IMG/VR virus record: IMGVR_UViG_3300047476_001426
Span: 32,001-96,000 of that record
Strand: one strand, 5' to 3'
Source: a virus
DNA: 64,000 nucleotides
Shown here: piece by piece, positions 28,076 through 43,527 of the stretch
How the letters are laid out: each line of letters starts with the position of its first letter
Position numbering within the stretch: position 1 is the first letter of the stretch
The notes under the pieces: model-generated
Database searches by the model: none
The model's input: only the letters and a program-made list of their open reading frames with translations
What the model was told of the DNA's origin: nothing
Position numbers and translations under genes: made by a program

Positions 28076-28502
28076 TAAGAAAAATTATTCAATGAAAACA
28101 AGAATTTATTTGGACGATGTGAGAACACCTGTTGAAAAAGACCAATGGGTTGTTGTTAGGAATTACGAGGAGTTCGTAAATAAAGTTAGTGAGATTGGTT
28201 TGGAGAACATCTCCTTAATATCGTTAGACCATGATTTAGGGGAAACCGCAATGGCGGAATGGCATCGTAATGTTTATCACAACTACGAGTTAGATTACGA
28301 TAATATCCTTGAGAAAACAGGAATGGATTGCACCAAATGGTTGGTTGAACAATGGATGGACGGTAAACCTGTTGTTGACGTTGTTGTCCACTCCGCGAAT
28401 GCGATTGGTAGTGGTAACATGATGGGTTATATTAACAATTATCGACATATTAATAGACTACCTCAGAATTGTATTAGGGTTCAGATTGAACACACTGTCT
28501 AA
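28062..28502 (+). CDS. Cyclic-phosphate-processing receiver-like domain protein
   Basis: IYLDDVR, ISLDHDLG, TGMDC, VHSAN motifs; start may be the ATG at 28092. Confidence 0.75.
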   Translation: MKIISKKNYSMKTRIYLDDVRTPVEKDQWVVVRNYEEFVNKVSEIGLENISLISLDHDLGETAMAEWHRNVYHNYELDYDNILEKTGMDCTKWLVEQWMDGKPVVDVVVHSANAIGSGNMMGYINNYRHINRLPQNCIRVQIEHTV

Positions 28503-28586: not shown

Positions 28587-28931
28587 ATGTCAACAAAAGA
28601 ACCGAACAAACCAAAAGACACGGTAATTAAAAAGCTAATACTAAAACAAGATTATAAAAACTTCAGTGATTTTTATAACATCAACAAAGAATCCATTTAC
28701 AGAACCTTAGCTAATCTTTTTAAAAGTTTGAAGAGAAAGGATAAACAAGTGGTTATTTTAGTTTTGGGAGCTAAAATTAATGGACTACAATGGGAGACCG
28801 AGCTAAAGTTTAAAAGACAAGAATCGGTTGTTTTAGTCAGAGATATTTTACCTTTCTTCGAACAAAATGAAGATTACGAAACTTGCGGTGAAATAACGGA
28901 AACCTACAATAAGATTTTAGAGATTCAATAA
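28587..28931 (+). CDS. Hypothetical protein with C-terminal UVR-like helix
   Basis: FFEQNEDYETCGEI resembles the UvrB/UvrC (E.YE.A..I) motif. Confidence 0.5.
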   Translation: MSTKEPNKPKDTVIKKLILKQDYKNFSDFYNINKESIYRTLANLFKSLKRKDKQVVILVLGAKINGLQWETELKFKRQESVVLVRDILPFFEQNEDYETCGEITETYNKILEIQ

Positions 28932-31219
28932 GACGAAGAGGATAAATTAGCATCTCCTTTTACAATATACTTAATATTGAAAATTATTGAGGTATTGGTA
29001 AAATTAATTGTGAAATTAGATACTGGTTGCACATTGTTGAAATTCGATAAAGTTATAGAATTAAAATCTGAAGATGTGTACCAATACACTTCGTTAAATG
29101 GTATCATTCCACTAATATTTGCACCCAATAGATAAGCATCAGAAATATTAATTTTACCGTCTTTATTTATATCACCCGCTTTCATTTTAGGACCATTGTT
29201 AAGAACTAAACCTGGTTGAAGTTGGGTTGGAGTATTTTCGTTTTGTGACTCATTAAAAACTTCATTAAAGTCACTCGATGTCAAAGATGGTGTGTACGTT
29301 GGTACTATCTTATAAGTTGAGTTGTATTTGGTTGGGTTAAATGTAAATGAACCTGTTGCACCAACTATTGCGGTCTGTAATAGAGTCTCGACCCCATTTT
29401 CAACCAAATAAAATTTTAATTCAGGTCTTACAGATAAACCTGAAGGGATAGTAACTGTTCCTGATATTGTTTCTGTTATTATTGTAACAGAACCTGAAGA
29501 ACTAAATGCAAATCCACACGTCCCACTCTGTAATTGTGCTCTGAATAGGGTTTTTACGGATATATTTGAATAAGACTGTGATGTGGTTGTATTGACAATA
29601 TCGGTCCACGTAACACCATCATTTGTCGACCTTTGCCATTTAACAATACTACCACTATAACCACTTAAAGTTACTGTTCCTGAGTTTGTTGTTGTGGTAT
29701 GAATCGATGATGATACCGAACCACCAACAGGAGGTGTACCTGATGTCACGGTAATCGTTTTTGAGTCTGAATTAACCGCACTACCACAGTTTGGTGTTTG
29801 TACTTGAACTCGATAATAATAAGTTCCAGCAGAGTTTAACGTTTCTATTAAACTTGTAGTTGTATTAGAAATATCAGTCCAATTTACATTGTCTGTTGAA
29901 CGTTGCCATTTATTGACATTACCTTGTTGACCCGATAATGTTAGTTCTACTTGACCACCGGCACATATTGAATTATTAACTGCAAATATTGTACCCGATT
30001 TTGTTGGTTTAACTGACAAGAACACACTTGATGTTGGTAAACTTGAGCAAGTTGTTGGACTGGTTGAATTTACAATTGCTCTATAGTATGTTGTTTTAGT
30101 TAGATTAGTTAAGGTAATAGTTGATGATGTGCTTGATATTGTTGTACCAGCGGTAAAAAAGTTATCAAATGAAGATTCCCATCTCACAATACTACCTGTA
30201 TATCCATTAAGTGTTAGTGTTGTACTATTACTACCTGAACAAACATTAATATCACCACCACTAATATACCCACTTGATGCCCCACTAATTTCTACGTTTC
30301 TTGTTAATATGGTTGTACTTGTGGTGATGTCACCTGGCATGTCACCATATTCACAAATATATCCGGGTAGAGATGTGTTTGGTAAATCATTCCATTGACC
30401 TAAATTACCTGAATAAAATTGACCGTAATGTTCTCCACCAGCATTATTAGGTTCCCCACCCGCCCATTTTGCATATTGACCTGTAACAGCAGTACTACCA
30501 TTGGAAAATTGAGTTCCCTTCTCAGGTCCTGTAACCCAATGCCACTTTTGTTCAACGGCTGCTTGTGATGCGAACGTAGTGGTACCTTTAGCGGTATTGA
30601 CCACACCCATTTCATCTGAAGCACCAAACCAACCATCTGATGACATTAATTTCCAAATAAAATTATTTTCCGCCTCAGATGACATTGTTGCCAAATAACC
30701 CGCTCTACCAAAATATGAACGATTTTCTGCGGATGTTTTTGAATTTGTCCATGTTGTTGAACCAGAAACATATTCATAAAAATGTTCAGTTAATGGGTTG
30801 TAAAATACAATTCCCGCAACAAATGTTACTCTTCTTTGTAGTGCATAACAGGTAGAGGTTGTTGACCTAAATTCAACTCCTCTTAAAACCGTTTCCCAAT
30901 TTGAAGCTGTTGTTGTTCCATTAAAAACTAACACCCCTGTGGTTGTATTGAATGCGGAAACAGTAATACCAGACGGTAAAGTTGCTGTTGACCTTAATTG
31001 GTCACCACTTACGCCACTTATGTAACTTTGAGATATTTGAACTCTAAACCCATTAATCGTACCATTCGCAGTCAAAGTAAGATTCGGGTCAACCTTTGTC
31101 CAAGTATTAAAACTTGCGGAAAGTGTACCCGTACTCGATGTACCTAAAGAAACTGATGTTGCTTGTGAGTAACCGAGAATCGGTAAAATTAAAAGTAATA
31201 TAAAAATTAAATTTCTCAT
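28925..31219 (-). CDS. Secreted protein: C-type lectin, Ig-like repeats and dockerin-like domain
   Basis: Signal peptide; YLAT..SEAEN, WFGASD, WAGGEPNN, WND, YICEY (CTL); repeated WQRST modules; GDINKDGKINISD dockerin-like loop. Confidence 0.75.
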   Translation of the reverse strand: MRNLIFILLLILPILGYSQATSVSLGTSSTGTLSASFNTWTKVDPNLTLTANGTINGFRVQISQSYISGVSGDQLRSTATLPSGITVSAFNTTTGVLVFNGTTTASNWETVLRGVEFRSTTSTCYALQRRVTFVAGIVFYNPLTEHFYEYVSGSTTWTNSKTSAENRSYFGRAGYLATMSSEAENNFIWKLMSSDGWFGASDEMGVVNTAKGTTTFASQAAVEQKWHWVTGPEKGTQFSNGSTAVTGQYAKWAGGEPNNAGGEHYGQFYSGNLGQWNDLPNTSLPGYICEYGDMPGDITTSTTILTRNVEISGASSGYISGGDINVCSGSNSTTLTLNGYTGSIVRWESSFDNFFTAGTTISSTSSTITLTNLTKTTYYRAIVNSTSPTTCSSLPTSSVFLSVKPTKSGTIFAVNNSICAGGQVELTLSGQQGNVNKWQRSTDNVNWTDISNTTTSLIETLNSAGTYYYRVQVQTPNCGSAVNSDSKTITVTSGTPPVGGSVSSSIHTTTTNSGTVTLSGYSGSIVKWQRSTNDGVTWTDIVNTTTSQSYSNISVKTLFRAQLQSGTCGFAFSSSGSVTIITETISGTVTIPSGLSVRPELKFYLVENGVETLLQTAIVGATGSFTFNPTKYNSTYKIVPTYTPSLTSSDFNEVFNESQNENTPTQLQPGLVLNNGPKMKAGDINKDGKINISDAYLLGANISGMIPFNEVYWYTSSDFNSITLSNFNNVQPVSNFTINFTNTSIIFNIKYIVKGDANLSSSSY

Positions 31220-32976
31220 AAATTTATCTTACTACCAACTAAGAAAAATGATAGAATTGGAAATTCAGGGTTTGTACTCATGTTCGCTTTATAGTTAACA
31301 TTTAACTTAAAACGCTTTGAGATTTGATAGTCAAAACCACTACCAATAAAACCACTCACATATCTATCAGTTATTGATACATTGTCTTTAGATGAATAAA
31401 CTAAGGGTGTTGAAATAACGTATAATTCGGGTGACACAATTAATTTTTTACCAACTTTAAATGGTCTTGTGTAAAAAGCGGTGATAGATGGTGAATAATA
31501 ACCATTCTTTTCTTCCGATATAATCGTTGCTGCTGCACTTACGTTAAAACCCGTAATACCATATTTCCCACCATTTAAAATACCACTATAACCAATAAAC
31601 CCTAAATAATTACCATAAGTGTAAACTCCTGTCAGGTTTATGTTATGAATGAACTTCAACTTTTTTGTTTTATTGTAATGTATTTTAGTATATTTTGTTG
31701 ACACAGCAAACTGTTTGAAATTTAACCAAACCATACCAGTTACACCATAACTTGATAAACCTGTCATTGACGATTTACTTGTTCCAATGTTTACTATTGG
31801 GGTGAAAGTTCTATTCAAATTTTGAGCGGAGGTAACATCAGAAGAAACAATGATAGGGTTAGACCTCGCACTACCCCCACCACCTGATTTACCTTTTCCA
31901 CCACTGTTTGAACCACCAGAACCACCGGCATTATTATCATTGTGAGCATCGTTGTTCATTTGTGTTGTTGCACCAACTTCTTCACCTTGTTGTTGGGTGT
32001 TGTTTTGATTATTATTTCCATTAGAGGTACCCGTTCCACCACTATTTGAGTTTCCTGAACCTCCGCTATTTCCTGTGGTAGTAGAACCTCCAGAACCCCC
32101 GTTATTACCTGAAGTTCCCGAACTTCCCGAACCATTATTTCCTGTGTTTGTTCCGTTGGTTGTTCCCGAACCACCTGTTGTGCTCGAACCATTTGAACCC
32201 CCGTTATTTGATGGAGACCCATTTCCGTTATTAGAACTACCTGTTGACCCTGAACCACCGTTGTTCGAACCAGAATTGTTTGATGGGGTTGACCCATTAG
32301 AGTTACCCGAACCTACAGATGGTTGAGTCGTTGAATTTCCCCCCTGAGTTGAGTTACCTGTACTTGATGACGTTCCTCCATTTGTTGAATTTCCACTTCC
32401 TTGAGTCGAGTTACTTCCTCCATTTGTTGAATTAGTTCCTGAATTCGATTGGGATTGTCCTCCATTTTGAGTTGTACTATTATTCGTAGTATTTGATTGA
32501 GATGAATTACTTCCATTTCCTTGATTATTATTGTTTTTCTTCTTATCAGAATTTTTATTATCCTTACCACCAGCATCACTACTACCCGAAGAACCAGTTT
32601 CTAAACTAGATGATTGTGCTTGACTACTTGACAATATCGAACTCACAACTGATTGAACCGTACTACCAATAATTTGTGCGGTTATTTGGTTTTGAGTTAC
32701 TTGACCCTGTTGTTGTGAACATGGGTTTGTTTGTCTGTATGTGGTATAAACCTGATTTACCCAATTGGAAAATGTTCCATTGGATAAATCGTTCGCGTCA
32801 AAACTACCAACATTATTTAAAAAAATAATCATCGTTTTACCCCCCTGTATTGGTACACTAAATATTGTGACTTCTTTTGTACAAGGGTCTATAAAAGTAT
32901 ACGTTGATACTTGTGCTTTCGATACATTATATACGAAAGTAAGAAAAAATGTTAATATTAATGTCTTAATGTTCAT
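31216..32976 (-). CDS. Secreted protein with G/S/N/T-rich linker and putative C-terminal beta-barrel
   Basis: Signal peptide; about 250-aa low-complexity linker; alternating-hydrophobic strands ending FFLVGSKINL. Confidence 0.6.
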   Translation of the reverse strand: MNIKTLILTFFLTFVYNVSKAQVSTYTFIDPCTKEVTIFSVPIQGGKTMIIFLNNVGSFDANDLSNGTFSNWVNQVYTTYRQTNPCSQQQGQVTQNQITAQIIGSTVQSVVSSILSSSQAQSSSLETGSSGSSDAGGKDNKNSDKKKNNNNQGNGSNSSQSNTTNNSTTQNGGQSQSNSGTNSTNGGSNSTQGSGNSTNGGTSSSTGNSTQGGNSTTQPSVGSGNSNGSTPSNNSGSNNGGSGSTGSSNNGNGSPSNNGGSNGSSTTGGSGTTNGTNTGNNGSGSSGTSGNNGGSGGSTTTGNSGGSGNSNSGGTGTSNGNNNQNNTQQQGEEVGATTQMNNDAHNDNNAGGSGGSNSGGKGKSGGGGSARSNPIIVSSDVTSAQNLNRTFTPIVNIGTSKSSMTGLSSYGVTGMVWLNFKQFAVSTKYTKIHYNKTKKLKFIHNINLTGVYTYGNYLGFIGYSGILNGGKYGITGFNVSAAATIISEEKNGYYSPSITAFYTRPFKVGKKLIVSPELYVISTPLVYSSKDNVSITDRYVSGFIGSGFDYQISKRFKLNVNYKANMSTNPEFPILSFFLVGSKINL

Positions 32977-33035: not shown

Positions 33036-33821
33036 TTATTTAGGGAATACACCCTTTTTTATCATTCTTAATAGAATTCTAGAACACGCAATATCTAATG
33101 CTTTTTTGGTGCTAATCCCTATTGTCGATTGATTAAATTTAACTTCACTTAAATTATCGTCATTTAGTAAACTTAATTCTCTAACGGTAACCGCTTCACC
33201 CAATCCACTAGCAGCAATTATTTGACCCGTTTCCGCATCGGTAAATCTAACTTGTAACCCTAATCTTGTAACAACAGTGTTTTTAACACCATTACTAAGA
33301 TTAACCGTCTCATCCTCACTCACTGAAAATTCATAAACTTCAATTGTAACAAAATAGTGTGCTAAACGTATTTTTCCTCTACCATCTAATGTGTCATAAC
33401 TAATACCCGCTTGAGAGGCTTGGTATTGTTTCACCATTCTATTTTTGATTTCGGTTTTGTCCTCAGTAAATGTGAATCTATTTAAATTCTCCAAATATTC
33501 TAATGTTATATTTGCCACACCTAAACCCACCTTCTTTTCTTTTAATTCAGGATATTGTTCGTATACCTCATCACTGATACCAATTTTTAAAATTTGTATT
33601 GGTATTTGGGGGCCATCGTAATCCATTAAAGAATCGATACTAACATTAGTCTCAAATGATGCTTTATATTGTTCTGTTTGAGTTTTACCAACAACCTGTG
33701 CACTTACAGTATTAGCAAAAACAAACATCAATACAAACCATAGTATTATCAGAATTACTGGTGATAATAGTTTTTCTATGACAAATTTTTTCATTTTACT
33801 CGGGGTCTTGTATTTTACCAC
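33036..33821 (-). CDS. CsgG/HfaB-like periplasmic or outer-membrane protein
   Basis: Signal peptide; LENLNRFTFTE, AHYFVTIEVYEF, LQVRFTDAETGQIIAASGLGEA resemble the CsgG fold. Confidence 0.6.
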   Translation of the reverse strand: MVKYKTPSKMKKFVIEKLLSPVILIILWFVLMFVFANTVSAQVVGKTQTEQYKASFETNVSIDSLMDYDGPQIPIQILKIGISDEVYEQYPELKEKKVGLGVANITLEYLENLNRFTFTEDKTEIKNRMVKQYQASQAGISYDTLDGRGKIRLAHYFVTIEVYEFSVSEDETVNLSNGVKNTVVTRLGLQVRFTDAETGQIIAASGLGEAVTVRELSLLNDDNLSEVKFNQSTIGISTKKALDIACSRILLRMIKKGVFPK

Positions 33822-34332
33822 ATTTTAAACATTCCAACTCACCGTCATTGTCTTGGTCGCCCCAAACATGTTCACATTGTCTATGTTCAAAATATTCATC
33901 AATTATACCGTCATTATCATAATCTAAACCATCCATAACACCATCACCATCTTCATCGATTTCAACACCGACCTTTGACGATGATTCTGTAATTACTTCA
34001 TTTTTAGTTTCATTGCTTGACGATTTCATGTCAGCAGTGTTTGAAAAAGAAACACCATCTTCCTCATCCATTTTTTGGACTAACATTTTATCCTTATCGG
34101 TATCACTGAACCAATAATCAATGATTTTACCATAAGAACCAATGAAAGCACCTAATAAAAGAAGTAGTAGTTCTTTCCATTCACCACCGATTTCATTTTT
34201 ACCTATAATCGCGGCGAAAATACCGGCCATAATAAACATAAAACCACCCAAGACGATAGCGGTAATAAACCACCTTCTTCTCATCATTGCGTTAAGAAGG
34301 TCTCTAAATCCGGTTGGTTGATTGTTTACCAT
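33796..34332 (-). CDS. Two-TM membrane protein with DxDxDG calcium-binding repeats
   Basis: Two hydrophobic helices; DEDGDG, DYDNDG, DQDNDG; terminal C..H/CxxC. Confidence 0.6.
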   Translation of the reverse strand: MVNNQPTGFRDLLNAMMRRRWFITAIVLGGFMFIMAGIFAAIIGKNEIGGEWKELLLLLLGAFIGSYGKIIDYWFSDTDKDKMLVQKMDEEDGVSFSNTADMKSSSNETKNEVITESSSKVGVEIDEDGDGVMDGLDYDNDGIIDEYFEHRQCEHVWGDQDNDGELECLKCGKIQDPE

Positions 34333-34667
34333 TGTGGCTCCTTTTCTTTAAATTCATCACCCTCTTTTTTAGGTTTTGCGGGTTCTGACTTAACCGGTTT
34401 TTCAACCACTCTTTCTTTTATTATGGTTGTGTTACCACCACCACTTGATGACGTATTCTTAGAAGAATTGTCAACATTCAAATTAATTACAGGTGCTGCT
34501 TGCTGTGTTTGAGTTGGTTCCTTTTCTTTGTCATCACCCCCACCAAATAAGGTGGTGGTAAAGTAAGTTCCACCCGCCATAACCGCAGTGGTAATAACCC
34601 CAATAATTGTTTTCTTAAGTCCTGACCATGTTCCGTCAGATTCTGGTACGTTTGTTTCTTCGCTCAT
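34326..34667 (-). CDS. Single-TM low-complexity protein
   Basis: One hydrophobic helix followed by a Thr/Gln/Lys/Pro-rich tail. Confidence 0.55.
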   Translation of the reverse strand: MSEETNVPESDGTWSGLKKTIIGVITTAVMAGGTYFTTTLFGGGDDKEKEPTQTQQAAPVINLNVDNSSKNTSSSGGGNTTIIKERVVEKPVKSEPAKPKKEGDEFKEKEPQW

Positions 34668-34671
34668 TGTT

Positions 34672-36585
34672 TTAAACTTTTACAAATTGTTTAGTTAATT
34701 GTTTATTATAATTATGCAAAACCAAGTAATAATTACCGGCTGCGGATGATGTCATATCGATTTGTTTATATGCAATTTTCTCTGATGAATTGGTTGTAAC
34801 AGAACCGATGTTTTTCACCAATTGACCTCTTACATCATAAATTGAACCGTTCATTTCCATGTTTGGATTTGGGAATCTAATTTCAATTTCAAACCATCCA
34901 CTTGTTGGGTTTGGTCTTATTGATGCTGTAATCTCATCAATTGATTGGTCTGTAGGTGGTGCCATTTTATACATGATAACCGCAACACTACTAACCAAAT
35001 CAATATTTAAATGGTCACCCTTCTCATCTGATGCATCCATTAATTGTCTCACATAAATGTTACTTACAATATCATTACCACCAATTGGTGAGAATTTAAG
35101 TTTAAATGGTGTTGATTGACCTATTAAACCATCTTTCATCTGATTGTTCATCCCACCGAATCTAATTGTACCATTAGAAGCATCGTGAGTAACATATTGT
35201 AACCATGGACCACCATTAAAATTTGATATAATCTCCTCAAACTTAACTTTAGTTTTATCGTATTTCATTTCAAACTGTAAACCATAATTGTTATCACCAT
35301 TTGTGTTAACATTGAATGGTACATATAATGGTTGACTTCCTGATGCTGAAGTATTAGGTATTTCAACATCTAATTTACCTTTAAACACCGCCTTAGCAAC
35401 TAATACCCCCGATGAGTTCCATACTCTTGATGAATACGTTCTGTCTACGTCACCTTGAATAAAGTACTTAATGTTTACTGTTTTATTAACTAAACCAACA
35501 CTATCCGTGATAAAATTGGTTGCGGTTAAATGGTTTGGCCAATCATTCCATTGAGTTGAACCTAAAACTAAAGAATCATAAACACTCGCGTGGAAAGTTC
35601 TAATCATTGTTGTGGTATCTATCTTTTTCATACCACTTACGTTCGCGTAAATTAGATATGGGTCACCACCATCCAATTTTCCGTTTTGGTTCATATCACC
35701 AATAAGGTATGCCAAACCATTTTTTAAGTATTGTTGTCCAAATCCTTGGTTAACGTCTGTAATTGTGTATTCATCATATGTCTTTACAGCGTCTGATATT
35801 GTAACCGCGTAATCTCTGAAGACTTCCATACTATCTGCTGGAAATCTAACCAATAATTTATATTTGGTATTTTTATCTACATTGTTTAATGAGTAGTTAC
35901 CAGCGGTGTCACATAAAGAAGATGAAACAAATGTGCCTGTATTATACTTTGTACATATTACTGTTGGTCTTCTACCGGCCAATTTCATTGTTGGAGGTAA
36001 TTCAACAACACCACTAATCACCAAGTTACCCAAAAGTTCAAGGTGCATATCTTGTACATTTAAGATTGCGATGTTATCACCAATTGTAGAACCGTCATAC
36101 TTAAACATTCTTGCCCAGTTAATTTCAACACTGTCAGCATCAAAGTTTGATTCTACGTCATTAATAATAAATTTGTTATGTATTAAAAATGTGTCTTGTG
36201 TTATTTGAGAACCACTTGAAAGTACCAAGAAATTTCTTGCCACAGTATAGTTGGTATCACTTGTGTATGAATACAAACCTGTACCTGAACTGTAACTTGA
36301 ATATTTGTAATTGTTAAAGAATTTTATCGAAAGTGCTGGAGTCATGGTACTCACAGTTGGGTCAACAGTAGTTGATACGTGAGTAAAAAGTTGTTTCCTA
36401 TATTGGAAATCAACTTGGAATGTTCTCACATCAACCGCGGATGCTGGTGTGTATTTAAACACAACATCTAAAGTATCACCTCTTTTGATAGTTTTATACG
36501 CAACGGGGTTACCTATTTCAGGTGTTTGTGAAAACGCCATTGTCGTGACAAATAAAGTAATTAGGGATAAAATTATTTTTTTCAT
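34672..36585 (-). CDS. T9SS-type cargo protein with cohesin-like and dockerin-like domains
   Basis: Signal peptide; cohesin-like FQVDFQY and LQFEMKYD...GTIRFGG; GDMNQNGKLDGGD; C-terminal IRPNPTSG..IYDVRGQLV..IDM...GNYYL..KQFVK (T9SS type A CTD). Confidence 0.8.
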   Translation of the reverse strand: MKKIILSLITLFVTTMAFSQTPEIGNPVAYKTIKRGDTLDVVFKYTPASAVDVRTFQVDFQYRKQLFTHVSTTVDPTVSTMTPALSIKFFNNYKYSSYSSGTGLYSYTSDTNYTVARNFLVLSSGSQITQDTFLIHNKFIINDVESNFDADSVEINWARMFKYDGSTIGDNIAILNVQDMHLELLGNLVISGVVELPPTMKLAGRRPTVICTKYNTGTFVSSSLCDTAGNYSLNNVDKNTKYKLLVRFPADSMEVFRDYAVTISDAVKTYDEYTITDVNQGFGQQYLKNGLAYLIGDMNQNGKLDGGDPYLIYANVSGMKKIDTTTMIRTFHASVYDSLVLGSTQWNDWPNHLTATNFITDSVGLVNKTVNIKYFIQGDVDRTYSSRVWNSSGVLVAKAVFKGKLDVEIPNTSASGSQPLYVPFNVNTNGDNNYGLQFEMKYDKTKVKFEEIISNFNGGPWLQYVTHDASNGTIRFGGMNNQMKDGLIGQSTPFKLKFSPIGGNDIVSNIYVRQLMDASDEKGDHLNIDLVSSVAVIMYKMAPPTDQSIDEITASIRPNPTSGWFEIEIRFPNPNMEMNGSIYDVRGQLVKNIGSVTTNSSEKIAYKQIDMTSSAAGNYYLVLHNYNKQLTKQFVKV

Positions 36586-37079
36586 AGTATTAATTTGTTA
36601 ATTAAGGTTTGAGTTGTTTTCTTTAATGCCGAACTAGCAGATTGTTGATTGAATTTACCACCCTCATCAATCATAATAGTTGAGGTTGAAATTTCAGTGG
36701 ATTTACCCTCTGAGAATTCCTGTTTAATTTTTTTATCACCTTTATATAGGACACCTTTCATTCTTATAACGGTAGTTGTCTTGTCTTCGTGAAAAATACT
36801 AACCCCCGAGTTAGTGGTTACAATATCAAAAAATATGAGCTCGACTTTAATTTTATAGTCCGCCTTATTTTTATCTGTAATCAGAATTAAACTGTCCTGT
36901 TCGTTTATGATTTCTTCTATTATATTTTTTACACCAAAAGCCAAATTTTTATTTTCGGTAAACGGACCAATCTTAATGTTGTTGATTACTGTGTCAACAA
37001 CAATAGTTTGTGCGTTCAGATTGGAAAACCCAAATGATATTAAAAAAAATAGTAATATGATTGGCAGTCTTGTCATCAC
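36582..37079 (-). CDS. Secreted protein, CsgG/LpoB-like fold candidate
   Basis: Signal peptide; LAFGVKNIIEE...KADYKIKVELIFF pattern similar to 33036-33821. Confidence 0.45.
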   Translation of the reverse strand: MMTRLPIILLFFLISFGFSNLNAQTIVVDTVINNIKIGPFTENKNLAFGVKNIIEEIINEQDSLILITDKNKADYKIKVELIFFDIVTTNSGVSIFHEDKTTTVIRMKGVLYKGDKKIKQEFSEGKSTEISTSTIMIDEGGKFNQQSASSALKKTTQTLINKLIL

Positions 37080-37116
37080 AAAAAAGAAAAAAACGGGGCA
37101 CTGAGCCCCGTATTAA

Positions 37117-37371
37117 TTACTCAGATACTGAATCGTCTGATTTTTTCTTATGTGAGAACTTGTCTAAAGTATCTGCACCCATTCCAATGGCAGTAATTAC
37201 CATTACCGCATTTACCAATTCTTCTGATGGTTTAATGTCACCATGTGTAAAAGAGTTTGCCATCATGGTTCCGCAAAGGAAAAGTGCACCTAATAGTGCG
37301 ATTACCGGTTTGATTGAAGTTGACCCTCTTTCATCTTTGAATAGGTCAATAATCCATTTTTTAAAGTTCAT
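37117..37371 (-). CDS. Small two-TM membrane protein (holin-like)
   Basis: 84 aa, two hydrophobic segments, charged C-terminus. Confidence 0.5.
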   Translation of the reverse strand: MNFKKWIIDLFKDERGSTSIKPVIALLGALFLCGTMMANSFTHGDIKPSEELVNAVMVITAIGMGADTLDKFSHKKKSDDSVSE

Positions 37372-37492
37372 AGTTGTAATTTAGTTTAGTTTTATTATTT
37401 GGTTTATTATAAATACCTCGGCAATCGAGATTGTCATATATATTATTTTAAAAAAAATTTTAACTTTTCTTGTTTTTTCGAATACTTATTAG

Positions 37493-37786: not shown

Positions 37787-37860
37787 GGTACCGTAGCTCA
37801 GTTGGTAGAGCACCAGACTGAAAATCTGGGTTGTCACTGGTTCAAATCCAGTCGGTACCA
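37787..37860 (+). tRNA. tRNA-Phe(GAA)
   Basis: Full cloverleaf; CCAGA-CTGAAAA-TCTGG. Confidence 0.93.
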
Positions 37861-37962
37861 CATAGTGTTGGCTTCAAGTCCCATTAGGGAAGTACACTTA
37901 AATAAAACATACACGGGGAAAGTGTTGACTGCAGAAACAGCGAGTACCAACGAAGGGGTAAT

Positions 37963-38036
37963 GTCTTCGTAGCTCAGTTGGTTAGAGCACCTCACTTTTA
38001 ATGAGGGAGTCACGCGTTCGAGTCGCGTCGGGGACA
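37963..38036 (+). tRNA. tRNA-Lys(TTT)
   Basis: Full cloverleaf; CCTCA-CTTTTAA-TGAGG. Confidence 0.93.
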
Positions 38037-38178
38037 CAAAGGTTGATTGGGGAATGATTATGTCTATAGTTCGAGAGTGGATACTGACTGACATAATCGG
38101 AGTTTGGAGGTATTCACCGTAGTAATGCCAATCGTAAAAGGAGATGTCCACTGAACCATCTTCTCCTTTCCTTGACTT

Positions 38179-38252
38179 AGTTCCTTAGCTCAGTTGGTTA
38201 GAGCATCTGCCTTACATGCAGAGGGTCGTTGGTTCGAATCCGACAGGGACTA
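38179..38252 (+). tRNA. tRNA-Val(TAC)
   Basis: Full cloverleaf; TCTGC-CTTACAT-GCAGA. Confidence 0.93.
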
Positions 38253-38318
38253 CAATAAACTAAAAATTGCATCAATAAACAAGGTTAGTTTATCGTGGCA
38301 AAAACAAGTTTAATAAAC

Positions 38319-38389
38319 ACGGGTGTGGTGAAAGGGTATCATACCGGTCTCCAAAACCGTTGTTGGGAGTTCGAATCTCTCCACCCGTG
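38319..38389 (+). tRNA. tRNA-Trp(CCA)
   Basis: ACGGGTG/CACCCGT acceptor; CGGT-CTCCAAA-ACCG. Confidence 0.88.
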
Positions 38390-38410
38390 CAAACTTTAAA
38401 AATAAAAACA

Positions 38411-38842
38411 ATGAACAATCAAATAGGAATCGATGCCGCAAAAATAAAATTTGAGGCTGAGAAAATGAAACTAAAAGAAGAAAGGGAACGAAGGATTAAA
38501 GAGTTTTGGGAAAACGGTATACCCAAATTAAATAATCCTGAAGACGTACCAACACTTCCAAGGGTGGATGAAAAAGAATGGAAAGAATACTATGTACCAA
38601 GATTGATTGATGCTGGTGCAATCCCTAAAAAAGATTTAATCCATGGTCAGATTTATATCGGTGAACATAGAAATACAACCATAGCAAGATGGAATCAGGA
38701 AACAAACAAATTCGACCACATGAGATATAAGTTTGGTTGGGCGAAAGATGATTGTAACCATTTTGAAGATGATGATGGATTCGCATTGTTTGTCCCAATT
38801 AGATTAGGAACACAAGAAGAATGGGATGAAAGAATTAAATAA
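38411..38842 (+). CDS. Hypothetical protein in the tRNA array
   Basis: ATG at 38411 after an A-rich leader; 143 aa. Confidence 0.65.
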   Translation: MNNQIGIDAAKIKFEAEKMKLKEERERRIKEFWENGIPKLNNPEDVPTLPRVDEKEWKEYYVPRLIDAGAIPKKDLIHGQIYIGEHRNTTIARWNQETNKFDHMRYKFGWAKDDCNHFEDDDGFALFVPIRLGTQEEWDERIK

Positions 38843-38847
38843 ATGAT

Positions 38848-38921
38848 GCTCTCGTAGTTCAATGGATTAGAACATTTCACTACGGATGAAAGGGTTGGGA
38901 GTTCGAGTCTCTCCGAGAGTA
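38848..38921 (+). tRNA. tRNA-Arg(ACG)
   Basis: TTTCA-CTACGGA-TGAAA; full cloverleaf. Confidence 0.9.
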
Positions 38922-38926
38922 CAATA

Positions 38927-38998
38927 GGGTCAGTTTGGTCATGGAGGCCGGTTAGTCTGCAAAACTAACGGAGTTGGTTCGATTCCAACATTGACCTC
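38927..38998 (+). tRNA. tRNA-Cys(GCA)
   Basis: GTTAGT-CTGCAAA-ACTAAC; T arm GTTGG-TTCGATT-CCAAC; weak D arm. Confidence 0.8.
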
Positions 38999-39053
38999 AA
39001 TATAAGGTCTGAACCTAATAGTGGGGGATTATTAGGTGTGGACCTTATAATAT

Positions 39054-39128
39054 GGTAGATATAGTTCAGTTGGTTAGAACGTCTGATTGTGGTTCAGAAG
39101 GTCGTCGGTTCGAATCCGATTATTTACC
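39054..39128 (+). tRNA. tRNA-His(GTG)
   Basis: TCTGA-TTGTGGT-TCAGA; encoded G-1:C73. Confidence 0.92.
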
Positions 39129-39135
39129 CAAACAT

Positions 39136-39212
39136 TGGAATATAGCTCAATTGGTTAGAGCATTCGTCTGATACGCGAAAGGTTATAGGTTCGATTCCTA
39201 TTATTCCAACCA
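39136..39212 (+). tRNA. tRNA-Ile(GAT)
   Basis: TTCGT-CTGATAC-GCGAA; encoded CCA. Confidence 0.93.
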
Positions 39213-39217
39213 AACAT

Positions 39218-39291
39218 TGCGGGGTGGACTGGAGAGGTTCCAGCTCAGTCTCATAAGCTGAATGACGTGGGTTCGATTCCCACCCCCGCAA
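39218..39291 (+). tRNA. tRNA-Met(CAT), fMet-like body
   Basis: TGCGGGG/CCCCGCA acceptor; TCAGT-CTCATAA-GCTGA (lacks the three G-C pairs of classical initiators). Confidence 0.8.
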
Positions 39292-39460
39292 CTTTTTCAT
39301 TGAACATTTTGAAATATGGAATTTCATGTTTATATTTTAATTGTTCGTTTGTTCTTTGAAATAAAAATATGGATATAACTAGGGTCGAGCCAGATTTTGC
39401 CACGGTTATGTCAAGGGTTGGAAGGACCAGAGCTGGCCGTGACTACTCCAACCCACTATT

Positions 39461-39534
39461 GCCTCCTTAGCTCAGTTGGCCAGAGCGCCTCACTTGTAAT
39501 GAGGATGTCGTTGGTTCGAATCCGACAGGAGGCT
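39461..39534 (+). tRNA. tRNA-Thr(TGT)
   Basis: CCTCA-CTTGTAA-TGAGG. Confidence 0.93.
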
Positions 39535-39631
39535 CTGCAGGGTTTTCGGTGTAAAGGGTGTCAAAACCCACCTGAGCAAAACCTAACATATGTCCACTAT
39601 GTGTTAGGGTAATGTGGATAAAACCGAAATT

Positions 39632-39703
39632 GGTCTCATAGTTAAACGGCTATAATGCAGCCCTGTCACGGCTGAGTTCGGGGTTCGATTCCCCGTGGGA
39701 CCG
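39632..39703 (+). tRNA. tRNA-Asp(GTC)
   Basis: CAGCC-CTGTCAC-GGCTG. Confidence 0.93.
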
Positions 39704-39994
39704 CAATGAGTAAGAGATACTCAGGAAGATTGGCTACATTCTGTAAAAAAGTAGTGGTGGTAAAAAAATCCTCGACCTTAATGAGGTATCGATTTGGATA
39801 AAACGGTAGCAAGACTCTGCACCGCCGACGTATAGAGTTGACAGGTTTTTATGTGGTAAGACACTAATGAAAAAGACCCAATGAAGGAGGACGCTTTTAA
39901 GCAATATGTTCAGAGAGCGTTGGGGGATATGGTTCTCGAAACAGTGAGAGAAACCCGTTAAAATCTACTTATTGTAATCTCAGATAAGGAAATT

Positions 39995-40080
39995 GGAGAG
40001 TTGGCAGAGCTGGTTGAACGCGGCGGTCTTGAAAACCGTTTTACTGAAAGGTAACGGGGGTTCGAATCCCTCACTCTCCG
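39995..40080 (+). tRNA. tRNA-Ser(TGA)
   Basis: GCGGT-CTTGAAA-ACCGT with a long variable arm. Confidence 0.92.
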
Positions 40081-40088
40081 CAAATTAT

Positions 40089-40163
40089 GGCCCTTTCGTC
40101 TATCGGTTAGGACAGGTCCCTTTCACGGACCAGAGACGGGTTCGATTCCCGTAGGGGCTACCA
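40089..40163 (+). tRNA. tRNA-Glu(TTC)
   Basis: GGTCC-CTTTCAC-GGACC; encoded CCA. Confidence 0.92.
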
Positions 40164-40179
40164 AACAAAAAAAACCAAT

Positions 40180-40422
40180 ATGTTAGAGAAAATTTTAGAA
40201 CAATATGAGAGTGAGGAAATCTTAATTGCCGATGGATTTGATAATGCGGTTATAGGTATTGATGAATCCACAATGAGATTAATTTATTCCGTTGAGAAGT
40301 GTATAAACATCCTAATGGAACAAGGAATGGATATGACAGAAGCGGTTGAATACTTTGATTTCAACGTCTCAGGTTCATATGTTGGTGAGAAGACTCCAAT
40401 ATGGTGTGATGATTTATTTTAA
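40180..40422 (+). CDS. Small acidic hypothetical phage protein
   Basis: 80 aa; ADGFDNAVIG...YSVEKC..EAVEYFDFN..GSYVGE.TP pattern common in phages. Confidence 0.7.
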   Translation: MLEKILEQYESEEILIADGFDNAVIGIDESTMRLIYSVEKCINILMEQGMDMTEAVEYFDFNVSGSYVGEKTPIWCDDLF

Positions 40423-40462
40423 AAAAAAATTTAAAATTATTTGTAAATAAAAAAACTTTTCG

Positions 40463-40470
40463 TATCTTTG
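40463..40470 (+). promoter_or_regulatory. Bacteroidota sigma70 -7 element driving tRNA cluster 2
   Basis: TATCTTTG with upstream TTTG (-33 element). Confidence 0.8.
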
Positions 40471-40487
40471 TGATAGTTATTTAAGAA

Positions 40488-40592
40488 ATGATGAACTTGG
40501 TATACATACAACAACCGTTGAACAATCCACTTAGTGGTAATGGGAGAGGTATATATTTATGTGACCCAAGTTCGGAGTTAGTCAAATTATAA
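40488..40592 (+). CDS. Leader peptide 2 (MMNLVYIQQPLNNPLSGNGRGIYLCDPSSELVKL)
   Basis: 34-codon ORF between promoter and terminator; carries antiterminator strand AAGTTCGG. Confidence 0.75.
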   Translation: MMNLVYIQQPLNNPLSGNGRGIYLCDPSSELVKL

Positions 40593-40616
40593 GGATAAGA
40601 TAACCTACTATAGATG

Positions 40617-40649
40617 ACCCGAACTTAAATAAAAAAGTTCGGGTTTTTT
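40617..40649 (+). terminator. Attenuator terminator 2
   Basis: ACCCGAACTT-loop-AAGTTCGGGT followed by TTTTT. Confidence 0.85.
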
Positions 40650-40681
40650 GTTTTTAGAGTTTTTTGTTTTTATATTTGAAG

Positions 40682-40704
40682 TGTTCTTTGACATATTGGT
40701 TTAA
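40682..40704 (+). promoter_or_regulatory. boxA-like antitermination element, copy 2
   Basis: Exact 23-nt repeat of 37761-37783. Confidence 0.6.
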
Positions 40705-40710
40705 GTAGTT

Positions 40711-40795
40711 GCCGAGGTGATGGAATGGTAGACATGAGGGACTTAAAATCCCTTGGACAGTAATGTTCGTGTGGGTTCGACTCCCATCCTCGGTA
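40711..40795 (+). tRNA. tRNA-Leu(TAA)
   Basis: AGGGA-CTTAAAA-TCCCT, long variable arm. Confidence 0.92.
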
Positions 40796-40800
40796 CAAAA

Positions 40801-40999
40801 GAAACTTCCTTACAGAAGGTGATAATGCTTCACTGAAAGGACTACTGACTTCCAAGTGGGTCGCAACCACAATCGGAAGGTACGACACGGCTCAGTAGAC
40901 TCTGTAACGGACCCTGCTCTATGGTGCACACATAACAGGTGATGGGGAACAAACCATCGGTAAAATCTAAACCCACGGTGAGCGTGGAAGGAATGTTTC
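40801..40999 (+). ncRNA. Unclassified multibranch structured RNA
   Basis: End-to-end stem GAAAC.TTCCTT/AAGGAA.GTTTC; internal TTACAGA/TCTGTAA, CTACTGA/TCAGTAG and several hairpins. Confidence 0.55.
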
Positions 41000-41009
41000 T
41001 TTTTTTAAT

Positions 41010-41083
41010 GTCTCCGTAGCTCAGCTGGATAGAGCAACAGCCTTCTAAGCTGTGGGTCATTGGTTCGAATCCAATCGGGGATA
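41010..41083 (+). tRNA. tRNA-Arg(TCT)
   Basis: ACAGC-CTTCTAA-GCTGT. Confidence 0.93.
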
Positions 41084-41085
41084 CT

Positions 41086-41225
41086 AAGATAGTGGTCACT
41101 CTCACAATGAAAGTCGACAAAGTAGTTGTGAGGTTCATAGTGTTCAGCACCCTCGGCCAGTGCACTGATAAAACTCAGAAGAAGCCGTTAAGATTGGAGC
41201 GAGACGGGTACTCCATCACTATCTT
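41086..41225 (+). ncRNA. Unclassified structured RNA
   Basis: Closing stem AAGATAGTG/CACTATCTT; internal CTCACAA/TTGTGAG and TGGAG/CTCCA hairpins. Confidence 0.5.
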
Positions 41226-41230
41226 TTTTT

Positions 41231-41305
41231 CGGGATGTAGCGTAGTCCGGTTATCGCGCATGGTTTGGGACCATGAGGTCGCAGGTTCGAATCCTGCTAT
41301 CCCGA
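41231..41305 (+). tRNA. tRNA-Pro(TGG)
   Basis: CATGG-TTTGGGA-CCATG. Confidence 0.93.
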
Positions 41306-41355
41306 CAAAGTCCGAGAGTAATTAACTCGGTACCTGAGAGGTTCGAAACTCTCGA

Positions 41356-41449
41356 TTGATTATGGTGTAATGGCGCACAGCAGAACGGAGTACGGGCATC
41401 GGCCTCGAAAGGGGACGCAGGATTAAGGTTCGAATCCTTATTAATCAGC
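41356..41449 (+). ncRNA. tRNA-like RNA with anticodon arm replaced
   Basis: Acceptor TTGATTA/TAATCAG, D arm GTGT/GCAC, T arm TAAGG-TTCGAAT-CCTTA; about 45-nt non-canonical middle. Confidence 0.6.
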
Positions 41450-41651
41450 AAGCCGTCTTTTTTCATACTCGCACCGATGAGGGGGACTGTTGAGACGTTA
41501 AAGTAACAGTGTAAAGCAATCGGGGGTTTATCCAAGTTACCCACAAACTGGGGTCGTTTTCCTTACCGAAGGAGTTTCCCGACCAATAAACTGAAACTCA
41601 AACGATAGAAAAAAGTAGGGACACATGGGGAAGCTTTAACCCGTCCCGAAA

Positions 41652-41750
41652 TAGTCAGGTGAGTTGGTACTCACGGAGGGTCGTTAAATGGAAAGATACC
41701 ACATCGACGAGGTGGTAAATGCCGAACAGGTTCGAGTCCTGTCCTGACTA
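41652..41750 (+). ncRNA. tRNA-like RNA, TAGTCAGG class, copy 1
   Basis: TAGTCAGG/CCTGACTA stem, GTGAG/CTCAC arm, ACAGG-TTCGAGT-CCTGT; no 7-nt anticodon loop. Confidence 0.6.
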
Positions 41751-41823
41751 CTAAGTAGAGAGAACCGTGAGTTTGCGGATGGAAACAACCATAAAACGAG
41801 CATACGTCATACTCTACTTAACA

Positions 41824-41918
41824 TAGTCAGGTTTGGTACAAGGTCGGTTCGAGTCCGATGGAAGGTCATGGATGTCGGGTAGCTCCCTGTAGAGAGGTTC
41901 GATTCCTCTCCTGACTAC
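41824..41918 (+). ncRNA. tRNA-like RNA, TAGTCAGG class, copy 2 (two T arms)
   Basis: Same terminal stem; TCGG-TTCGAGT-CCGA and AGAGG-TTCGATT-CCTCT. Confidence 0.6.
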
Positions 41919-41995
41919 GATACGGTGTTGACCTGTCCGCGACCGAAATGTATACAAAACAGTGGAGGGTGACAAATAGGGAGAGACCTGTACAT

Positions 41996-42136
41996 GATTA
42001 AGTGGCGAAATTGGTTTACGCGCTGGTCAGTACCCAAAAGAGTGTTGAATGGGGAAAACTGGTGGACATACTACAGACACGAGTAGTAGGAGATTATGTC
42101 TTTAAATCCGTACAGGTTCGAATCCTGTCTTAATCT
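41996..42136 (+). ncRNA. tRNA-like RNA with a long insertion in place of the anticodon arm
   Basis: GATTAAG/CTTAATC acceptor, Leu-type D arm GCGAAATTGGTTTACGC, ACAGG-TTCGAAT-CCTGT. Confidence 0.6.
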
Positions 42137-42263
42137 CGAATGTGGTTCGATTCCACTCGTTAACTGAGGTTTTGGAAAGTAGTCCAATGGAGGTACACAC
42201 TCCACTTAGAAATAAGGTAGAATGATGGAGAACAGTTTGGAGGTGTGGGAAGACACACAAAAT

Positions 42264-42335
42264 TCCTCGATAGCTCAGCGGTAGAGCAAACGGCTGTTAA
42301 CCGTTAGGTCCCAAGTTCGAATCTTGGTCGGGGAG
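42264..42335 (+). tRNA. tRNA-Asn(GTT)
   Basis: AACGG-CTGTTAA-CCGTT. Confidence 0.93.
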
Positions 42336-42411
42336 CAAAAAAATCGTTGATGGAAACATCGAAGGTGTACAATACTAGTAACACCGTAGGTTTGGCGATG
42401 TCCTACAATAG

Positions 42412-42492
42412 GCCTTGGTGGTGGAATGGTAGACACGCTAGTCTTAGGAACTAGTGGCGAAAGTCGTGTCGGTTCGAGTCCGACCTGAGGTA
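42412..42492 (+). tRNA. tRNA-Leu(TAG)
   Basis: CTAGT-CTTAGGA-ACTAG. Confidence 0.92.
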
Positions 42493-42497
42493 CAAAT

Positions 42498-42601
42498 TCA
42501 TTCTTAGTGTTATGAGGTAAAACACTTTGACTCTCACATCGCCTGGTTAGTACTGACCCGAATGTGAGACGAGTAAGTTGGTTCGAATCCAACAGAATGG
42601 A
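42498..42601 (+). ncRNA. tRNA-like RNA with an extended hairpin replacing the anticodon arm
   Basis: TCATTCT/AGAATGG acceptor, GTGTT/AACAC D arm, TCTCACAT/ATGTGAGA hairpin, GTTGG-TTCGAAT-CCAAC. Confidence 0.65.
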
Positions 42602-42663
42602 CAACCCGTCGAAAGCTCATGTTGGTCCGAGTGAGATGGAAACGCGGATATCGGACCCGTTAT

Positions 42664-42745
42664 TGGAAGGTGGGTGAGTGGTTAAAACCGGCAGACTGTA
42701 AATCTGCTCCCATTGGGTACGGGGGTTCGAATCCCTCCCTTCCAA
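42664..42745 (+). tRNA. tRNA-Tyr(GTA)
   Basis: GCAGA-CTGTAAA-TCTGC, variable arm. Confidence 0.92.
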
Positions 42746-42758
42746 CAAAAATATCATT

Positions 42759-43310
42759 ATGAAAAAAAATAAAATAATTTCAGAGATGTTATCAAACATC
42801 ACACCTGAAATGAAAGAAAAATGGAAACAAGAGAGAATTGAACGTAAAAACAAATTAACACCCGAATATCAACTCGGATATTATGTTGGTTTGGAAATTG
42901 TTCACAGATATCTACCAACTCTTTCTACTGATATGATACAATCTCGCACCGTGATTGAAGTTTCTGAAGAAGATACTTTAGAAAATGAAAGATTGGATAC
43001 CGAATGGTATACAACAACAAAACACGGTGGAGAATGGAATGGTGTTGATGAAAACGGCAATAAAGAGAAATGGGATTTATACCATCAACACAATAAAATG
43101 TTGGGAAGGAAATACCTACCAAATCCATTGGAGTGTTACATGAGTTTGTTAAATGTTCAAAACATGGATGAATTTAAAAAAGGTTTAAGGTTCGCATTGT
43201 GGGATTGTGATATGTGTTCATACAATATTGAACCTGAAAACATAAAAATTTACGATGATGAACAAGCCATGTTTACTATTATCGAATTTCAATTAGATTC
43301 AGTGGTGTAG
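42759..43310 (+). CDS. Hypothetical protein in the tRNA array
   Basis: 183-aa ORF; its TAG stop overlaps the 5' end of tRNA-Ile(TAT). Confidence 0.65.
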   Translation: MKKNKIISEMLSNITPEMKEKWKQERIERKNKLTPEYQLGYYVGLEIVHRYLPTLSTDMIQSRTVIEVSEEDTLENERLDTEWYTTTKHGGEWNGVDENGNKEKWDLYHQHNKMLGRKYLPNPLECYMSLLNVQNMDEFKKGLRFALWDCDMCSYNIEPENIKIYDDEQAMFTIIEFQLDSVV

Positions 43311-43377: not shown

Positions 43378-43428
43378 ATTATCGGTTAAATAACCGATAA
43401 AATAAATTATCGTCGATTTGAACGATAT

Positions 43429-43502: not shown

Positions 43503-43527
43503 CAGAGATATTTATATATAAAAAACT

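Follow-up and report, generated by a model that had tools for sequence, protein, structure and literature searches.

A T4-like phage protein with type IX secretion cargo features and cohesin-fold domains, and the conserved envelope gene block that carries it

Domains and export signals of w637

We analysed w637 (P0001), a protein of 637 aa encoded on the minus strand at 34672–36585 of a 64,000-nucleotide stretch of viral DNA, which is called the window here. The window makes up bases 32001–96000 of a 136,485-bp IMG/VR virus record (IMGVR_UViG_3300047476_001426; CheckV completeness 41%), and its G+C content ranges from about 0.29 to 0.43. An earlier note, made from the letters of this DNA, had described the product as phage-encoded type IX secretion system (T9SS) cargo with cohesin- and dockerin-like domains. 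The open reading frame (ORF) lies exactly at the coordinates which that note gave, and it is backed by its translation, its homologues and the ratio of nonsynonymous to synonymous substitution rates (dN/dS). The T4-type major capsid protein Gp23, the prohead protease, the portal Gp20 and the large terminase are encoded within the window, and relatives of w637 lie on contigs of 318–321 kb, including one 318-kb ENA scaffold; the source of the window is therefore a T4-like jumbo phage. The phage context claimed for the w637 gene was confirmed by these head genes and by the presence of the module in a cultured Flavobacterium phage.

The N-terminus of w637 showed a basic start and a hydrophobic core followed by AFS/Q, where the slash marks the predicted cut. 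Residues 1–19 (36529–36585, minus strand) form the predicted signal peptide, in agreement with the earlier claim. Gln20 was invariant in 46 of 46 homologues, and position −1 was occupied by Ser or Ala. Cut sites of this kind were found in all five signal-peptide proteins of the seven-gene block to which w637 belongs (AFS/Q, LNA/Q, VSA/Q, SKA/Q and GYS/Q), and likewise in the homologues of the cultured phage, immuto. This arrangement is known as the Q-rule for signal peptidase I substrates in Bacteroidetes (PMC5837995), and Q-rule proteins were noted earlier in phages of Porphyromonas (P. gingivalis) (PMC10367356). The Gln after every signal-peptide cut indicates that these proteins are truly exported and are made in a Bacteroidota cell.

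In Bacteroidota, the T9SS is known to serve enzymes, adhesins and virulence factors that belong to the cell itself. At the opposite end of w637, residues 552–637 (34675–34932, minus strand) comprise a linker and a T9SS type A C-terminal sorting domain (CTD). The CTD (558–636 of 637) scored 31.5 bits against PF18962 over residues 558–635 (cut-off 27) and 23.4 bits against TIGR04183 (cut-off 23). It was modelled as a 7-strand sandwich with a predicted local distance difference test score (pLDDT) of 81–88. The earlier claim of a type A CTD was thus upheld by scores above both curated cut-offs, the position at the extreme C-terminus and the seven predicted strands. The invariant residues of the CTD are P558-N559-P560, Y583-D584, G587, G617, Y619, L621 and F634, and K632 and K636 were kept in at least 90% of the sequences. 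PF18962 was carried by 118 of the 120 listed w637 homologues. The 136-kb record contains no other type A CTD. A search of the record for type B CTDs (PF13585) returned nothing, but neither did the control genomes, and this negative is therefore hardly informative.

A conserved, functional-looking CTD would also be expected of a decoy. In this alternative, w637 would jam the host T9SS and halt host surface proteins (phage receptors, gliding adhesins), thereby excluding other phages. T9SS and gliding mutants of Flavobacterium resist phages, and a cohesin and a dockerin-like module on one chain could self-associate. The decoy leaves the lectin, the CsgG pair and the barrel of the block (described below) unexplained, and no feature of w637 points to a stalled translocation intermediate. 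We consider it very unlikely.

The region between the two export signals was examined in an AlphaFold2 (AF2) model built on 46 homologues, which had a mean pLDDT of 75.6. The first cohesin-fold domain, D1, spans residues 20–186 (36028–36528, minus strand; pLDDT ~87). Aligned with VIA-align, D1 (19–186) matched the cohesin 2vo8 with Z 15.1 and a root-mean-square deviation (rmsd) of 2.2 over 133 residues, followed by 2jh2 (Z 13.8) and 2y3n (Z 12.9); type II cohesins reached Z 12–13. The second cohesin-fold domain, D3, spans residues 401–547 (34945–35385, minus strand). D3 (403–542) matched the solved cohesins 6kg8, 6kgf and 4uyp with Z 15.2–15.6 and rmsd 2.3–2.8 over 132–145 residues. The top 34 rows of the structure search with the cohesin-fold domains were all cohesins. 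The two cohesin-like beta domains named in the earlier note thus reappeared in the model, each at Z ~15 to solved cohesins. Pfam Cohesin (PF00963) gave 16.9 bits on residues 411–488, below the cut-off of 24.1, and no match on D1. The same family passed on the D3-aligned domain of immuto gp015 (36.7 bits) and of a marine 646-aa relative (43.4 bits). A sequence profile of the 46 homologues, searched against solved structures, returned only a chance-level match of the CTD (5jvk, E 0.55).

D1 is followed by D2, a small beta-sandwich at residues 187–252 (35830–36027, minus strand; pLDDT ~90), which is homologous to residues 584–638 of w764, the lectin protein of the same block. In its position, D2 is comparable to an X-module. 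The dockerin-like module occupies residues 253–400 (35386–35829, minus strand) and was recognised by a conserved loop, a conserved motif and profile matches. The 12 residues of its Ca loop, DMNQNGKLDGGD (residues 297–308, window 35662–35697), conform to the F-hand pattern: D/N stands at positions 1, 3, 5, 9 and 12, and a predicted helix (309–316) follows. D297, N299, D305 and D308 were invariant among homologues. A second motif, GDVDR..SS at 378–386, has invariant residues too; it lies about 80 residues past the loop and does not match the F-hand loop pattern. The profile of the w637 module matched w764 at 649–763 (3e-8) and immuto gp014 at 257–359 (1e-4).

The homologues of w637 form more than 400 full-length clusters (~630 aa, 53–91% identity) in metagenomes, and 115 relatives were found in IMG/VR. 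The block is widespread in lake and marine phages and metagenomes, and its CsgG-like partner has more than 5,700 protein clusters. The earlier note had missed that w637 is common in lake and marine phages and is not a one-off. A search for shorter forms of w637 returned mostly fragments ended by contig borders. Against 50,697 phage records, megablast of the region matched tRNA genes and nothing else, and protein searches matched the immuto phages only.

The pairwise dN/dS of w637 against close relatives was 0.03–0.05 (dS 0.5–1.06). Purifying constraint was seen in every domain, including the CTD and the dockerin-like module, and was looser in the signal peptide (0.15–0.44). The dockerin-like module was among the most conserved parts, with a column identity of 0.77 and a dN/dS near 0–0.02 in close pairs. 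The low dN/dS across the protein indicates that w637 is not a diversifying receptor-binding protein. All sequence features of a T9SS type A cargo are present and are held under purifying selection.

Misassembly, by which a host gene would have been attached to phage DNA, was among the refuting conditions of the earlier note; on these data it was ruled out and has practically no probability left. Nothing was found in its favour, and the block with phage flanks was seen in 80 independent IMG/VR contigs, in the 318-kb ENA scaffold and also in a cultured phage whose genome is complete. A scan of 185,579 prokaryote species (one genome each) found no relative of w637; this negative is weak, because just two peptide patterns were scanned.

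The seven-gene envelope block and its relatives

tblastn against 80 IMG/VR loci showed the gene order w165-w637-w113-w178-w261-w586-w764 in every locus with enough DNA. The outer flanks of the block (cREC_REC, RNA ligase, ClpB-like) were kept only in close relatives. There is a 4-nt overlap between the start of w637 and the stop of the upstream gene, and the genes downstream are spaced or overlap by a few bases. Judged by this spacing, the block is a tight operon. All window coordinates in this section refer to the minus strand.

The first gene of the block, w165 (36582–37079), encodes a short exported CsgG-family paralogue with the signal peptide cut LNA/Q. In hhalign, w165 matched the w261 family with a probability of 94.6% (E 6e-8). 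It was found in 80 of 80 loci and is the homologue of immuto gp019. Two small predicted inner-membrane proteins follow w637. w113 (34326–34667) has one transmembrane helix and a low-complexity tail; it was found in all 80 loci, and its homologues are immuto gp016 and a marine 116-aa protein. w178 (33796–34332) has an acidic, Cys-rich tail of DxDxDG repeats; it was found in 67 of the 80 loci, and a marine 104-aa homologue was matched with E 7e-52. The first 100 residues of w178 are extremely conserved, even to marine phages. Its C-terminal half carries three DxDxDG-type acidic loops and CxH...CxxC after the membrane helices.

w261 (33036–33821, probable start Met10) was assigned to the CsgG family of outer-membrane proteins by its homologues and its model. 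A Pfam search up to E 10 gave no direct CsgG match for w261 itself, and Pfam CsgG (PF03783) was matched by 17 of 42 phmmer-linked homologues (best E 1.9e-25). The AF2 model (pLDDT 84.9) had CsgG 6lqh_A as its best PDB match (Z 12.8, rmsd 2.8, 174 aa), and the next match reached Z 10.1. w261 is 57% identical to immuto gp017. Its signal peptide ends in VSA/Q and has no lipobox Cys; LTGC occurs in the marine homologue, and a Cys is part of the family consensus. The neighbourhoods of bacterial CsgG-like relatives were uninformative.

w586 (31216–32976) encodes an exported protein with an N-terminal domain, a linker of about 270 aa rich in S/G/N/T, and a C-terminal domain that is probably an outer-membrane beta-barrel. 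Its nearest named Atlas clusters were all outer-membrane barrels (0.92–0.93), which is a lead only. The homologues of w586, immuto gp018 and a marine 305-aa protein, both end in Phe.

The last gene of the block, w764 (28925–31219), encodes an exported C-type lectin with three Ig-like repeats and a C-terminal D2 plus dockerin-like module, and it has no CTD. It was recognised through immuto gp013 and the module profile. w764 is 38% identical to the lectin domain of gp013, which matched Pfam Lectin_C at 3e-15. The D2 plus dockerin-like profile matched w764 at 584–763 (E 3e-12), and the loop reads DINKDGKINISD. Pfam Dockerin_1 reached 19.4 bits on w764, below the cut-off of 22.9. Within the 136-kb record, the D2 plus dockerin-like module with its F-hand loop was found only in w637 and w764. 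For the barrel region of w586, the Ig-like repeats of w764 and w165, Pfam searches up to E 10 were empty. No PHROGs match came up for w637, w764, w586, w261, w178 and w84 (the ORF upstream of the block), and w113 and w165 had chance-level matches only.

The cultured Flavobacterium phage immuto (NC_055915, 160 kb, host Flavobacterium sp. LMO8) carries the block as gp013–gp019. The lectin corresponds to gp013, w637 to gp014 plus gp015, w113 to gp016, w261 to gp017, w586 to gp018 and w165 to gp019. In gp014, a signal peptide is followed by a weak D1 and the D2 plus dockerin-like part; a CTD is lacking. gp015 has its own signal peptide, the cohesin and the CTD. The split (L001 6842–8666) falls exactly at the border between the dockerin-like module and D3, and the marine 646-aa homologue aligns over gp014 and gp015 together. 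gp015 gained a signal peptide of its own, so that the two genes reflect a genuine split rather than a frameshift. If the halves remain useful, they would most simply still bind each other, which lends indirect support to a contact between the dockerin-like module and a cohesin.

Marine TARA contigs carried homologues of six of the seven block genes, including a CsgG-like lipoprotein and the 305-aa version of w586. Across these phages, the cohesin-CTD protein is constant, along with both membrane proteins, the pair of CsgG-family proteins and the barrel; the lectin, which was not seen on the marine contigs, is the variable and dispensable part. In the marine block, an Endonuclease_NS gene whose product looks exported lies between the w178-like and w113-like genes (L086 5782–6402; L087 2321–2941).

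A different use of the cohesin folds has to be weighed here. w637 could be a T9SS-released factor, soluble or vesicular, in which the cohesin folds bind a glycan or a host surface protein directly and no cohesin–dockerin pairing takes place. Such a factor would need the same export signals, and the marine relatives keep the cohesin-CTD protein without the lectin or the F-hand loop. Cohesin-like folds are also known from proteins that are not part of cellulosomes; 2vo8 and 2jh2, both from glycosidases of Clostridium perfringens, are examples. Against this reading stands the dockerin-like module, which at its column identity of 0.77 is highly conserved and is common only to w637 and the neighbouring lectin protein. 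The split in immuto is also easiest explained by halves that still associate. We regard a released factor of this kind as unlikely.

Promoter-like motif and probable timing of the block

A promoter-like motif, TATTTATA, lies at 37408–37415 (minus strand), upstream of the w84 gene that precedes the block, and is shared with the head genes. In gene orientation, TATTTAT(A) precedes the portal, terminase, protease and scaffold-position genes, among others, by 4–51 nt (for example at 17821–17828, 19649–19656, 13769–13776 and 10617–10624), and the leaders are very short. Of 31 occurrences of TATTTAT, 15 were in sense orientation and no more than 60 nt upstream of a start, where 0.83 would be expected. 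In divergent loci without w84, the motif stands 12–30 nt upstream of the w165 homologue, often just past a terminator hairpin. Genes such as the kinase-like ORF at 26595, which heads the RNA-ligase operon, have a host-type TAnnTTTG element upstream instead. A sigma-70 scan performed no better than on shuffled sequence. The T4 late promoter TATAAATA was tried as the motif and rejected; the motif in gene orientation reads TATTTATA. TATTTAT(A) is probably the counterpart of TATAAATA for this lineage. Because the block and the head genes have the TATTTAT motif in common, the block is probably co-expressed with the virion genes and thus late.

The 84-aa product of w84 (37117–37371, minus strand) combines two hydrophobic helices with a charged tail at the C-terminus. 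It is holin-like by sequence and gave no family match. w84 was detected in 17 of the 80 loci and adjoined the block in 12 of these 17; in L081, L082, L084 and L085 it lies about 2 kb upstream of the w165 homologue. It is linked to the block only in close relatives.

In this phage and those closely related to it, a holin-like gene lies directly upstream of the block. Together with the promoter-like motif of late head genes, this could mean that the block is the exit machinery of the phage. It would then breach the envelope at lysis instead of spanins, with w637 as the outer-membrane-associated part, and the mixture of inner-membrane and outer-membrane proteins in the block would fit this role. 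Lysis has no need of a T9SS tag, two cohesins or a C-type lectin, and the limited occurrence of w84 among the loci also argues against it. Neither the block nor the 136-kb record as a whole yielded a lipoprotein o-spanin, a coiled-coil i-spanin or an endolysin. We consider an exit role quite improbable. A search of the same 136-kb fragment, which represents 41% of the genome, found no integrase, phage lysozyme or amidase_2.

The motif shared with structural genes would also suit a virion-associated w637 that serves as a decoration or an adsorption aid. Multi-Ig/beta-sandwich architectures are frequent among BFVD virion proteins. The Q-rule Sec signal and the T9SS tag of w637 lead away from the cytoplasm, where T4-type virions are assembled, and no PHROG structural family was matched. 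The w637 gene is not part of the run of head genes and has the tRNA array and RNA-repair genes as neighbours, and its strong purifying selection is unlike that of host-range proteins. A place on the virion is highly improbable on this evidence.

Proposed role and comparison with known systems

We propose, with a probability of about 0.6, that w637 is a T9SS cargo that acts as a surface scaffold, that its dockerin-like module plugs into cohesins, and that it works with the envelope block. Immuto, the one cultured phage found with the module, infects Flavobacterium sp. LMO8, and Flavobacterium species possess the T9SS. w637 would be made from the phage-type promoter common to the head genes, probably late, exported by Sec and cut by signal peptidase I before Gln20. 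It would fold in the periplasm, and the T9SS would recognise the type A CTD and move the protein over the outer membrane, where it would be attached to the surface or released. Outside the cell, w637 would be a small scaffoldin, with two cohesin-fold modules flanking the Ca-loop dockerin-like module. In the most likely arrangement, the dockerin-like module would plug into a cohesin and thereby join the lectin w764 onto the scaffold, or scaffold onto scaffold. The infected cell would gain a new sugar-binding coat. w637 would act together with the two CsgG-family proteins, the probable outer-membrane barrel and the two predicted inner-membrane proteins.

A cohesin/dockerin-like scaffold with the 28925–31219 product is indirectly supported, because w764 holds the sole other D2 plus dockerin-like copy in the record. 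The seven-gene block probably rebuilds the surface of the infected cell. Our best guess for the purpose is a late surface remodelling that would mask or occupy receptors and so keep infected cells and debris from trapping progeny and competitor phages, or that would make neighbouring host cells adhere to one another. The roles put forward in the earlier note, namely superinfection exclusion, adhesion or aggregation, and anti-grazing, are hypothetical as well.

Several points weigh against this reading. The AF2 confidence was below 50 for residues 261–320 of w637, and Pfam Dockerin (PF00404) gave no match on the protein. A dockerin needs two tandem repeats of about 22 residues, and w637 and w764 have one canonical F-hand loop each. 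The CTD exceeded the PF18962 and TIGR04183 cut-offs by a small margin. Many Flavobacterium type A cargoes are released and not anchored, and surface display of w637 is therefore not assured. w764 has no CTD, which leaves its passage over the outer membrane unexplained. The late timing is read from the shared motif and is probable at best, and a terminator-like hairpin with a T-run lies at 37093–37111, between w84 and w165. On the marine contigs, no lectin and no F-hand loop was found within the DNA at hand, and the cohesin-CTD protein and its CsgG and barrel partners were kept. The lectin is variable, and the conserved partner of the cohesin therefore need not be a lectin and may be another product of the block.

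The Ca-loop module of w637 is dockerin-like and is not a true dockerin. The dockerin-like Ca-binding loop described earlier was confirmed as a canonical, conserved 12-residue loop; it is single and Pfam Dockerin is silent, so that the module is dockerin-like only. The family models proposed in the earlier note as a check were divided, with TIGR04183 above its cut-off, cohesin below it on w637 and dockerin silent. Taken as a whole, the observations of that note stood and its interpretation was partly supported, namely in the phage ownership and the sequence features of a T9SS cargo. It had not recognised the strictly syntenic envelope module around w637, nor that the lectin is its dispensable member.

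A wider version of the proposal is more tentative, and we put its chances clearly below even. Large T4-like phages of Flavobacteriia may, late in infection, build a sugar-binding coat on the infected cell from a T9SS-fixed cohesin anchor and lineage-specific docking lectins, with the CsgG pair and the barrel as a second export or anchoring route, and the coat may serve sibling capture or receptor masking. If this were true, it would be the first cohesin–dockerin-type assembly encoded by a virus and the first case of a virus using type IX secretion.

w637 combines known kinds of protein, namely envelope-directed phage proteins, T9SS cargo and cohesin scaffolds. It falls within the definition of a T9SS cargo at sequence level and within that of a cohesin at fold level (for D3 also at family level by homology), and outside that of a dockerin. 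Cellulosome scaffoldins (Clostridium thermocellum CipA, Acetivibrio ScaA/ScaB; PDB 3kcp, 4fl4, 3l8q) resemble w637 in their cohesin folds, of which w637 has two at Z ~15, and in a beta-sandwich followed by a Ca-loop module on one chain; the putative partner w764 ends in the same module. Unlike in scaffoldins, the module of w637 has one F-hand loop instead of two and fails Pfam Dockerin. The anchor is a T9SS CTD and not an SLH or sortase motif, the passenger is a lectin and not an enzyme, and the gene belongs to a phage whose host is Gram-negative. The pairing in our case is read from the genes.

Known T9SS type A cargoes include RgpB of P. gingivalis and the lectin adhesin RemA of F. johnsoniae. 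Like Bacteroidota cargoes of this type, w637 has a Q-rule Sec signal and a C-terminal beta-sandwich of 80 aa that scores above both cut-offs. Unlike cellular cargoes, w637, a cargo as judged from its sequence, is encoded by a virulent-type T4-like phage, and the pattern-based genome scan gave no cellular relative of the entire protein. Immuto differs from the phage studied here by encoding the scaffold as two separate exported proteins, by its genome of 160 kb and by other flanking genes. The GenBank annotation of immuto names gp015 a 'cohesin domain-containing protein' and mentions neither T9SS nor CsgG.

T4-like pelagimyophages carry partial curli (CsgG/CsgF) clusters, for which aggregation and 'sibling capture' were proposed (PMC7029224). 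They are like the present phage in being aquatic T4-like myophages with CsgG-family genes in a small operon of exported proteins. They infect SAR11, which is without the T9SS, and no cohesin, CTD or lectin partner was reported for them (PMC7029224), whereas the CsgG pair of the present block is tied to a T9SS cargo. Sortase B with its substrates and outer-membrane proteins were described in huge phages in a 2026 preprint (bioRxiv 10.64898/2026.10.24.761521). These huge phages and the P. gingivalis phages (PMC10367356) resemble our case in that phage proteins are put in the host envelope through host sorting signals. Neither bioRxiv 10.64898/2026.10.24.761521 nor PMC10367356 mentions T9SS sorting domains or cohesin/dockerin-like modules. 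In the literature covered, in which subscription journals were thinly represented, we found no description of a phage-encoded T9SS cargo or of a phage cohesin/dockerin-like pair.

A virulent phage with its own T9SS cargo would have a new viral way to the outside of a still-intact host. The block is very common in lake and marine metagenomes, and its role therefore bears on the natural killing of abundant Flavobacteriia. The cultured pair of immuto and Flavobacterium sp. LMO8 makes the question directly testable. A minimal Ca-loop plug-and-socket pair exported by the T9SS could also become a surface-display tool for Bacteroidota.

Other genes of the window were annotated as well. The region 24385–28502 (plus strand) encodes a ClpB-type double AAA+ protein, followed by the kinase-like ORF, an RNA ligase of the T4 Rnl1 type and the cyclic-phosphate processing receiver protein cREC_REC, and this gene set looks like an RNA repair set. 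Sugar-nucleotide and glycosyltransferase genes lie at 59049–63874 (minus strand) and 1119–1898 (plus strand), and include epimerases/dehydratases, a UDP-glucose dehydrogenase-like gene, GT2 and HtrL_YibB. The sugar genes of the phage may change host surface glycans, a possible ligand of the w764 lectin. A total of 26 phage tRNA genes were annotated, and the tRNA array lies at 37787–46458. Its last tRNA (46386–46458, plus strand) has the anticodon CTA, is of the amber-suppressor type and was called tRNA-Pyl by ARAGORN. The ORFs of the window are open under table 11 despite this CTA-anticodon tRNA gene.

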